In this document: piece by piece, positions 5,370-7,361 of the stretch
Numbering within the stretch: position 1 is the stretch's first letter
How the letters are laid out: each line of letters opens with the position of its first letter
Origin: a virus
Lineage: Duplodnaviria; Heunggongvirae; Uroviricota; Caudoviricetes
Virus record (IMG/VR): IMGVR_UViG_2541047849_000001
DNA length: 11,884 nt
Strand: one strand, 5' to 3'
Translations under genes and position numbers: made by a program
The notes under the pieces: model-generated
Databases searched by the model: none
The model's input: only the letters and a program-made list of their open reading frames with translations
What the model was told of the DNA's origin: nothing

Positions 5370-5461
5370 ACCCCCTTGAACTTCGCCGGACGGCTATTTC
5401 CCACTTTGCTGATCTGGAGGCAGAGGCCGTCCGTATAAATGAGGAGATGAAGCATGGCTGA
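5297..5461 (+). other. Putative -1 programmed ribosomal frameshift site (T TTT TTT at 5297-5303) and open -1 frame extension of the tail assembly chaperone
   Basis: Heptamer is in the correct X_XXY_YYZ register of the chaperone frame; the -1 frame then stays open for 52 codons (YRLGDGRDLRKRFYNVAWFWKLNPLELRRTAISHFADLEAEAVRINEEMKHG) to TGA at 5459-5461, overlapping the tape-measure start. Confidence 0.5.
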
Positions 5462-6830
5462 TAATTTTCAGCTGAAAGCCATCATCACCGCCGTTGACAG
5501 GCTGTCCGGCCCGCTTAAAGGTATGCAGCGTCAGCTTAAGGGGGTTCAGAAAGAAGTCTCCAGCCTTGCTCTGGGCGCTGCCGGGGCGGGTACTGCAATA
5601 ATGGGGGCACTGGCACTCCCTGTAAAATCAGCCATCACCCTTGAATCGAAGATGGCTGATGTCCGCAAAGTGGTAGACGGTCTGGATACGCCGGATGCGT
5701 TTAAGGCCATGACGGAGCAGGTACGCGCTTTGTCTACTGAGCTTCCCATGTCTGCAGACGGGATCGCGGAAATTGTGGCGGCTGGCGGTCAGGCCGGGAT
5801 TGCACGTGATGAACTGATGCAGTTTGCCACTGATGCGGTGAAGATGGGCGTGGCCTTTGATACCACGGCTGAAGAGTCCGGGCAGATGATGGCCCAGTGG
5901 CGTACTGCGTTTAATATGACGCAGGATGAAGTGGCCGGGCTGGCTGACAAAATCAACTACCTTGGTAATACCGGCCCGGCGAATGCGAAGAAAATCTCCG
6001 ATATTGTTACGCGTATTGGTCCTTTAGGTGGTGTTGCAGGTGTGGCTTCCGGCGAAATCGCGGCAATGGGGGCAACCATTGCCGGGATGGGCGTGGAGTC
6101 AGAAATTGCCGCCACAGGGATCAAGAACTTCATGCTTTCCCTGACCGCGGGAAATTCCGCGACAAAATCGCAGAAACAGGCATTACGTTTTCTGCGGATC
6201 AATCCGAAGAAATTAGCTGCTGATATGCAGAAAGATGCCCGGGGAACCATGCTGTCTGTACTGGATGCGATGGCTAAAGTGCCCAAAGAAAAACAGGCAG
6301 CTGTGCTGAATGCCCTGTTCGGGAAAGAGTCTCTGGGCGCGATAGCACCTCTGCTGACTAACCTTGATTTGTTGCGTACCAACTTCAGGCGGGTTGCGGA
6401 TTCCCAGCAGTATGGCAGTTCGATGCAGAAGGAATATGCTTCGAGGGCAGCGACGACGGAAAACCAGCTTTTACTTCTGCAAAATCAACTTGATGCCATT
6501 TCTTCCACGCTGGGGGAAACGTTTCTTCCTGAGGTTAATGATGGTCTTGAAGCGGTAAAACCGCTCCTTGAGGAAGTGAGAACGTTTGTCCGTGAAAACC
6601 CGGAGCTCGTTAAGACCATTGCTAAAATCGGTCTGGCCTTACTGACGGTGGGAGCCGCTGCAGGCTCTTTGTCCAGAATTATGAAAGTTCTCGGCGGTGT
6701 GATGAATATGACGCCTGCTAAGGGGCTGATTGCTCTTCTGGTTGGTGGCGCTTACCTCATTATTGATAACTGGGAAACCGTAGGTCCTGTCATAAAAAAA
6801 GTCTGGCACGTGGTGGATGAAACGGCGTAG
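5454..6830 (+). CDS. Phage tail tape measure protein, N-terminal 458-aa segment (ends at in-frame amber TAG 6828-6830)
   Basis: Ala/Gly-rich helical sequence with hydrophobic C-terminal segments typical of tape measure proteins; strong RBS (GAGGAG) before ATG 5454; position after the chaperone. Confidence 0.85.
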   Translation: MADNFQLKAIITAVDRLSGPLKGMQRQLKGVQKEVSSLALGAAGAGTAIMGALALPVKSAITLESKMADVRKVVDGLDTPDAFKAMTEQVRALSTELPMSADGIAEIVAAGGQAGIARDELMQFATDAVKMGVAFDTTAEESGQMMAQWRTAFNMTQDEVAGLADKINYLGNTGPANAKKISDIVTRIGPLGGVAGVASGEIAAMGATIAGMGVESEIAATGIKNFMLSLTAGNSATKSQKQALRFLRINPKKLAADMQKDARGTMLSVLDAMAKVPKEKQAAVLNALFGKESLGAIAPLLTNLDLLRTNFRRVADSQQYGSSMQKEYASRAATTENQLLLLQNQLDAISSTLGETFLPEVNDGLEAVKPLLEEVRTFVRENPELVKTIAKIGLALLTVGAAAGSLSRIMKVLGGVMNMTPAKGLIALLVGGAYLIIDNWETVGPVIKKVWHVVDETA

Positions 6831-6833
6831 GCG

Positions 6834-7361
6834 ATGGGGGGATGGGAAACTGTTCTGAAAGCGATTGCCCTGTTTATGGCAACCAAATGGGTTGCTGACG
6901 TTACCAAATCCATTACCGCAGTGACCAGAGAGATGCGTACGCTGGGGAAGGTATCGGCAGAAACGGGATTGATGGGGAAAGGCCGCGGCTTTATCGGGAA
7001 GGCCGGGGTATATGGTTTTCTGGGAACCCTGATGTATGAGCCGGTTAAAGATACTCTGGAAAGTGTTGTTCCTGAAGATACGGTTAACTGGCTGGATAAT
7101 AAAGGGCTGTTTCTGGCTTCAGACTGGACGCCTTTTTTTGATCGTAAAGAGTACGAGCAGTATCAGGCCAGCCTGAGTCAGTACAAACCCAATGTTCCGC
7201 TGTTGAATCCATCTTCTTCCATGACACAGCACAGCGAGCTGAAAGTCACGTTCGAGAATGCTCCGCCAGGTATGAAGATAATTGATGTACCGGGCAAAGC
7301 CGATCCCCTGATGAAAATCACGCACGATGTGGGGTATTCCCCTTTTCGTTTTCCACGATAA
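6834..7361 (+). CDS. Phage tail tape measure protein, C-terminal 175-aa segment (same frame as 5454..6830, separated by one TAG)
   Basis: Begins 1 codon after the amber stop in the same frame; repeats the local motif (DNWETV before the stop, GGWETV after); combined length of about 635 aa is typical of a Mu-like tape measure. Confidence 0.65.
   Translation: MGGWETVLKAIALFMATKWVADVTKSITAVTREMRTLGKVSAETGLMGKGRGFIGKAGVYGFLGTLMYEPVKDTLESVVPEDTVNWLDNKGLFLASDWTPFFDRKEYEQYQASLSQYKPNVPLLNPSSSMTQHSELKVTFENAPPGMKIIDVPGKADPLMKITHDVGYSPFRFPR

Follow-up and report, generated by a model that had tools for sequence, protein, structure and literature searches.

A tape measure pseudogene with an internal amber codon in a cryptic SfIV-type prophage at thrW of Escherichia coli

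Here we show that two adjacent open reading frames (ORFs) in an 11,884-nt stretch of Escherichia coli DNA (the window, by which we mean the whole of the stretch analysed) belong to one tape measure pseudogene, which is carried by a cryptic thrW prophage of the SfIV type; nothing about the locus is new in kind. We put at about 0.93 the probability that the interruption is an ordinary nonsense mutation, a C-to-T change at position 6828 of a single SfIV-type thrW tape measure gene, carried in a decaying remnant that is incapable of forming particles. An earlier note on the same DNA had arrived at a nonsense mutation, or else a sequencing error, as the simplest explanation, and had named a genuine two-gene arrangement and amber read-through in a suppressor background as alternatives.

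Shigella phage SfIV is a myovirus that has been isolated and is viable and inducible; its contractile tail measures about 101 nm, its tail tape measure protein is encoded by a single ORF, ORF-13, and phages of this type integrate at thrW (Jakhetia et al. 2013, PMC3851460). The prophage in the window had previously been labelled Mu-like, a label that we correct to SfIV/SfV-type thrW prophage. In prophages of this type the early region is lambdoid (repressor, replication P, Q, Bet/Exo), the head is HK97-type, and the contractile tail/baseplate module is of the Mu type, with the Pfam families of Mu Gp45, Gp46, and Gp48.

Results

A single reading frame interrupted by an amber codon

The ORF listing of the window contains a 458-aa ORF at 5454..6830 and a 175-aa ORF at 6834..7361, both on the plus strand and both starting with ATG. 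Read in one frame, 5454–7361 comprises 636 codons, of which one in the interior is a stop and the last is TAA; the sequence across the internal stop is GAA ACG GCG TAG GCG ATG GGG (features and coordinates are collected in Table 1). The two ORFs had been described as lying in the same frame and separated only by TAG; the shared frame and the in-frame stop stand, while the spacer is in fact the TAG plus a sense codon, GCG, ahead of the ATG. That the second ORF has no convincing ribosome-binding site is borne out as well, there being no Shine-Dalgarno sequence 5–10 nt before ATG 6834. The sole purine-rich stretch before this ATG is the AGG of TAG-G itself, 2 nt upstream, and a GGTGGA lies about 14 nt upstream. 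ATG 6834 is the ancestral internal codon Met461, at which ORF callers begin the 175-aa ORF.

A similar motif flanking the stop (DNWETV / GGWETV) had also been pointed out. It is present, at residues 440 and 464, at a level no greater than chance: in 30% of shuffles of the tape measure protein a 4-mer was repeated within 30 residues, and the motif therefore carries no weight. Its reading as a meaningful repeat around the stop was rejected on this ground and because both copies belong to the intact ancestral protein.

Table 1. Features of the window, with the lesions and private substitutions of the prophage remnant
Feature	Position	Strand	Basis or remark
proA, upstream of thrW	1-1254		
thrW tRNA-Thr(CGU), prophage attachment site	1369..1444	+	tRNA in window; att repeat
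Prophage tyrosine integrase, left end of remnant	1459..2622	-	Pfam Phage_integrase, E 5e-48; same annotation in relatives
Dam methylase, last of the early genes after the integrase	3756-4313	-	
Junction of 24,265-bp internal prophage deletion	4438..4443	.	blastn against intact PSS-16 prophage; microhomology TACCCG (6 bp)
Tail assembly chaperone, directly upstream of tape measure	5046..5369	+	Pfam Phage_TAC_7
Tape measure pseudogene, codons 1-458, with PhageMin_Tail domain	5454..6827	+	ORF; Pfam PF10145, E 1.1e-42, residues 88-290
Amber codon TAG, ancestral CAG (Gln459), C-to-T transition at 6828	6828..6830	+	sequence and relatives
Rest of tape measure gene, codons 460-635 and TAA	6831..7361	+	gapless collinearity with 3' third of relatives' single gene
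Truncated gp45 ORF	9838-10251		Mu Gp45 N-terminal domain
Junction of 853-bp deletion	10218..10219	.	comparison with intact relatives; microhomology TA (2 bp)
N-terminally truncated baseplate J ORF	10221-11003		Baseplate_J
Private substitution, tape measure F31V	5544		
Private substitution, tape measure Q459*	6828		
Private substitution, gp44-like E128D	9142		
Private substitution, gp44-like T234K	9459		

Homology, gene position, and length identify a tape measure gene

The first part of the split gene carries the Pfam PhageMin_Tail domain, and the second part (6831–7361), searched against Pfam alone, has no match. The earlier view that both parts look like tape measure protein accordingly holds for the first part by this domain and for the second solely by its collinearity with full-length relatives. 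In 216 E. coli records, 215 of them full-length, the whole 1908 nt has a gapless match to a single gene that is annotated as tail tape measure protein. The 215 full-length matches, drawn from a collection of 5,426 complete E. coli genomes, are 95–99.9% identical to the window, and among the matches listed every one is annotated as one tape measure protein. Four phage records match the same stretch, including Shigella phage SfIV at 98.8%. In both E. coli G1/2 and SfIV the tape measure is one CDS of exactly 1908 nt (635 codons) situated between the tail assembly chaperone and DNA-circulation genes.

Assignment to the tape measure class rests on homology (PF10145, and 98.8–99.9% nucleotide identity to annotated genes), on gene order (sheath C-terminus, tube, Phage_TAC_7, tape measure, DNA_circ_N, gp44-like), and on length. 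The length of a tape measure protein is related to tail length at about 0.15 nm per residue. By our own arithmetic 635 residues would correspond to a tail of about 95 nm, compared with about 101 nm in SfIV. The frame of a functional member is interrupted here by the TAG at codon 459, and the gene is therefore filed as a tape measure pseudogene.

Immediately upstream, the tail assembly chaperone gene has a run of seven T at 5297–5303 (CGT TTT TTT ACC in the chaperone frame), and its -1 frame is open from the T run to a TGA at about 5462–5464, overlapping the start of the tape measure gene. This arrangement suggests the usual -1 programmed frameshift, predicted here from sequence, by which a longer tail assembly chaperone would be made; if so, the 84-nt "gap" between the annotated chaperone and tape measure genes would be coding.

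The orthologous codon is CAG in all relatives compared

Alignment with the tape measure genes of related prophages had been proposed as a check on whether the interrupted codon is elsewhere a sense codon. It is: position 6828 is C, and the codon is CAG (Gln459), in 7 of 7 relatives fetched, namely SfIV and six E. coli. Only two of 1908 nt, at 5544 and 6828, separate the window from the tape measure gene of G1/2, and 22 of 1908 from that of SfIV. Since the T at 6828 of the window is C in both G1/2 and SfIV, the ancestral codon 459 must have been CAG, and the lesion is a C-to-T change that created the amber. Together with the single 1908-nt gene annotated in the relatives, this upholds the proposal that one tape measure gene, about 635 codons long, has suffered a nonsense mutation. 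A Dcm (CCWGG) deamination hotspot was considered as the source of the C-to-T change and rejected, the ancestral context GCGCAGGCG not being a Dcm site.

A 63-mer around the stop has no exact match in the 5,426 complete E. coli genomes. With the C restored, the same 63-mer is found exactly in 113 records, and with 1–3 mismatches in the other 102. A 40-mer built in such a way that each 28-nt seed contains the T likewise has zero matches in the 5,426 complete genomes. Judged by these sequence comparisons, the stop is private to one lineage, a result that refutes both programmed read-through and a two-gene arrangement conserved among relatives; a recoding site or split gene of either kind finds neither a conserved stop in the seven relatives nor an independent ribosome-binding site before ATG 6834.

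The base is reproduced by independent sequencing

Scaffold KE701198.1 of NCBI assembly GCA_000459575.1, a contig recorded in 2 samples, is 100% identical to the window across all 11,884 nt. A Logan contig, ERR4578576_219 (6 samples; ENA run ERR4578576), is 100% identical to positions 3087–7505, a span of 4,419 nt that includes both the TAG and the upstream deletion junction at 4438–4443. The exact 458-aa truncated product is on record in these two places, GCA_000459575.1 and ERR4578576_219. Independent sequencing, compared at the level of assemblies, reproduces the base, and the mutation is a genuine one that is passed on within a single E. coli lineage.

Two further lesions mark a defective prophage

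The chromosomal setting is the region of proA and thrW. Positions 1399–1462 of the window recur, with 62 of 64 nt identical, at the distal end of the intact PSS-16 prophage and hence represent the att core of this phage family. PSS-16, which carries its intact prophage at the same proA-thrW site, served as reference for a 24,265-bp deletion that fuses the early region, at DUF1317/Dam, to what is left of the tail sheath gene, its last 88 codons, and produces a chimeric ORF (4421–4693) ending in these codons. Lost with the 24,265 bp are exo/bet/gam, the repressor, replication, Q, lysis, terminase, portal, protease, capsid, connector, and terminator genes, and most of the sheath. The second deletion, of 853 bp (not a multiple of 3), takes gp46 in its entirety along with the C-terminal part of gp45 and the N-terminal part of baseplate J. 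Neither junction was found among complete E. coli genomes: the one at 4438–4443 is absent from all 5,426, and the one at 10218–10219 is absent from the complete genomes of the same collection. Compared with intact relatives at the same att site, the prophage has lost genes essential for the particle and is defective. The prophage decay suspected earlier from the amber codon is thus shown independently by the two deletions.

An attempt at ordering the lesions through genomes that combine a deletion junction with CAG was abandoned, as no complete genome has either junction. The amber could predate the deletions, given that the collection of complete genomes contains no example of any of the three lesions. 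Full-length ORFs are kept for the tube, chaperone, DNA-circulation, gp44-like, and gp48-like proteins, so the decay of the remnant is not uniform among the tail genes.

The nearest relative, YZ3-11, shows 5 differences from the window in the 5,780 nt from 4438 to 10217. Four substitutions in this interval are private to the window relative to all seven relatives, and all four are protein-changing (Table 1); there are no private synonymous changes over the same interval and relatives. This pattern fits relaxed constraint, with n = 4 too small for a test.

Downstream, at 10218–11884 (baseplate J C-terminus, gp48/YmfQ, and the start of the tail fibre), identity is about 96–97% to relatives that are 99.6–99.9% identical in 4438–10217. 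The drop indicates a putative boundary, mosaic or recombinant, close to the second deletion. Directly after the end of the window at 11884, inside the tail-fibre gene, the source scaffold contains a gap of 2,015 N (L003 14433–16447), and beyond the gap lie a Pin-type invertase and a LEM-3-like GIY-YIG gene.

Discussion

The explanation that we consider most probable is a simple one. A single C-to-T transition at 6828 turned Gln459 (CAG) into an amber codon (TAG) and inactivated the tape measure gene. The remnant in which the gene lies would be unable to make particles, since its genes for head, lysis, replication, and immunity are gone together with most of the sheath and part of the baseplate; lacking a head, a full-length sheath, and a complete baseplate, it could be expected to form neither a tail nor a particle. 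In such a remnant the amber would be one of several lesions of neutral prophage decay. The locus would yield at most a 458-residue N-terminal fragment, and possibly a little of a 175-residue C-terminal piece by re-initiation, and neither fragment would have a tail to build. We infer that the amber change is neutral and that nothing functional is expressed from the locus.

Other explanations of the stop are far less probable. An error of sequencing or assembly, with the true gene intact, would be compatible with a single-base difference from the nearest relatives and with a draft scaffold as source, one that has a 2,015-N gap nearby. Against it stands the separate ERR4578576 contig, identical to the window through both the TAG and the deletion junction, and the NCBI contig has itself been recorded in more than one sample. 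The identity of this independent contig leads us to reject an error, which we regard as exceedingly improbable. A genuine two-gene or split tape measure, in which the 175-aa protein is made from ATG 6834 by termination-reinitiation and both pieces are functional, draws on the position of this ATG 3 nt after the stop. An ATG 3 nt past a stop codon is a geometry that can permit translational re-initiation in bacteria, and re-initiation here is mechanistically possible but unsupported. The ATG lacks a Shine-Dalgarno sequence at a useful distance and is an ancestral internal methionine, and the tail module is incomplete. According to the earlier note, close relatives consistently encoding two proteins, with a stop at the same position and an independent start, would have refuted a single mutated gene; all relatives have a single gene instead, none with a stop at this position, and we hold the two-gene arrangement to be extremely unlikely. 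Whether or not re-initiation occurs would be irrelevant, as its product would have nothing to assemble with.

A host suppressor tRNA might alternatively read through the amber to give a full-length tape measure protein. The one point in favour of this is that the ancestral codon, CAG, encodes Gln, so that a Gln-inserting suppressor of the supE type would restore the exact ancestral residue and with it the wild-type protein. Yet a search for a suppressor tRNA near the locus found none, thrW, a tRNA-Thr(CGU), being the only tRNA in the 17 kb of host sequence examined. A full-length protein would in any case still be functionless next to 88 remaining sheath codons and deleted gp45, gp46, and J sequences, and the stop occurs in no relative, which leaves nothing to suggest an adapted recoding site. 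We consider suppression very unlikely. There is also scarcely any likelihood that the remnant is kept for use, for instance because the 458-residue fragment or the intact tube, DNA-circulation, and gp44-like genes poison the tail assembly of superinfecting SfIV-type phages, or that the host carries a natural Gln amber suppressor.

The locus offers a clean small example of prophage decay, comprising two microhomology-mediated deletions and a point nonsense mutation, and its three lesions could be used to trace the lineage of this E. coli clone. For annotation, the consequence is that the stretch should be entered as one tape measure pseudogene (internal stop) in a defective thrW prophage and not as two proteins.

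Comparison with known systems places the locus among familiar kinds of element. The closest characterised phage gene is ORF-13 of SfIV (KC814930 / NC_022749), with 98.8% nucleotide identity over 1908 nt and no gaps, the same flanking order (sheath, tube, assembly chaperone, tape measure, DNA-circulation protein, baseplate), and integration at thrW. In SfIV, a viable phage, the gene is intact at 635 codons, and codon 459 is CAG; in the window this codon is TAG, and about 25 kb of the phage genome are missing. Intact SfIV-type thrW prophages, such as those of PSS-16 (NZ_AP027713.1), G1/2 (NZ_CP060083.1), and YZ3-11 (NZ_CP127004.1), are 98.9–99.9% identical to the window across the tail module, and that of PSS-16 occupies the same proA-thrW site; unlike those of the window, their head, lysis, and tail modules are complete, and their tape measure is annotated as a single gene (WP_000774664.1 and others).

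Amber mutants in phage tail genes that are propagated in the laboratory on supE/supF hosts offer a parallel for the codon change itself, with CAG-to-TAG in an essential tail gene and a Gln suppressor that would restore the wild-type sequence. The window, in contrast, comes from the chromosome of a natural isolate with further irreversible deletions, and a suppressor host is hypothetical in this case. Cryptic or defective prophages of E. coli, for example e14, Rac, and CP4-6 in K-12, are remnants that gather deletions and point pseudogenes. Although the remnant in the window belongs to a different phage lineage, it resembles them in keeping its integrase and att site, in its large internal deletions at short microhomologies, and in its scattered nonsense or truncating lesions.
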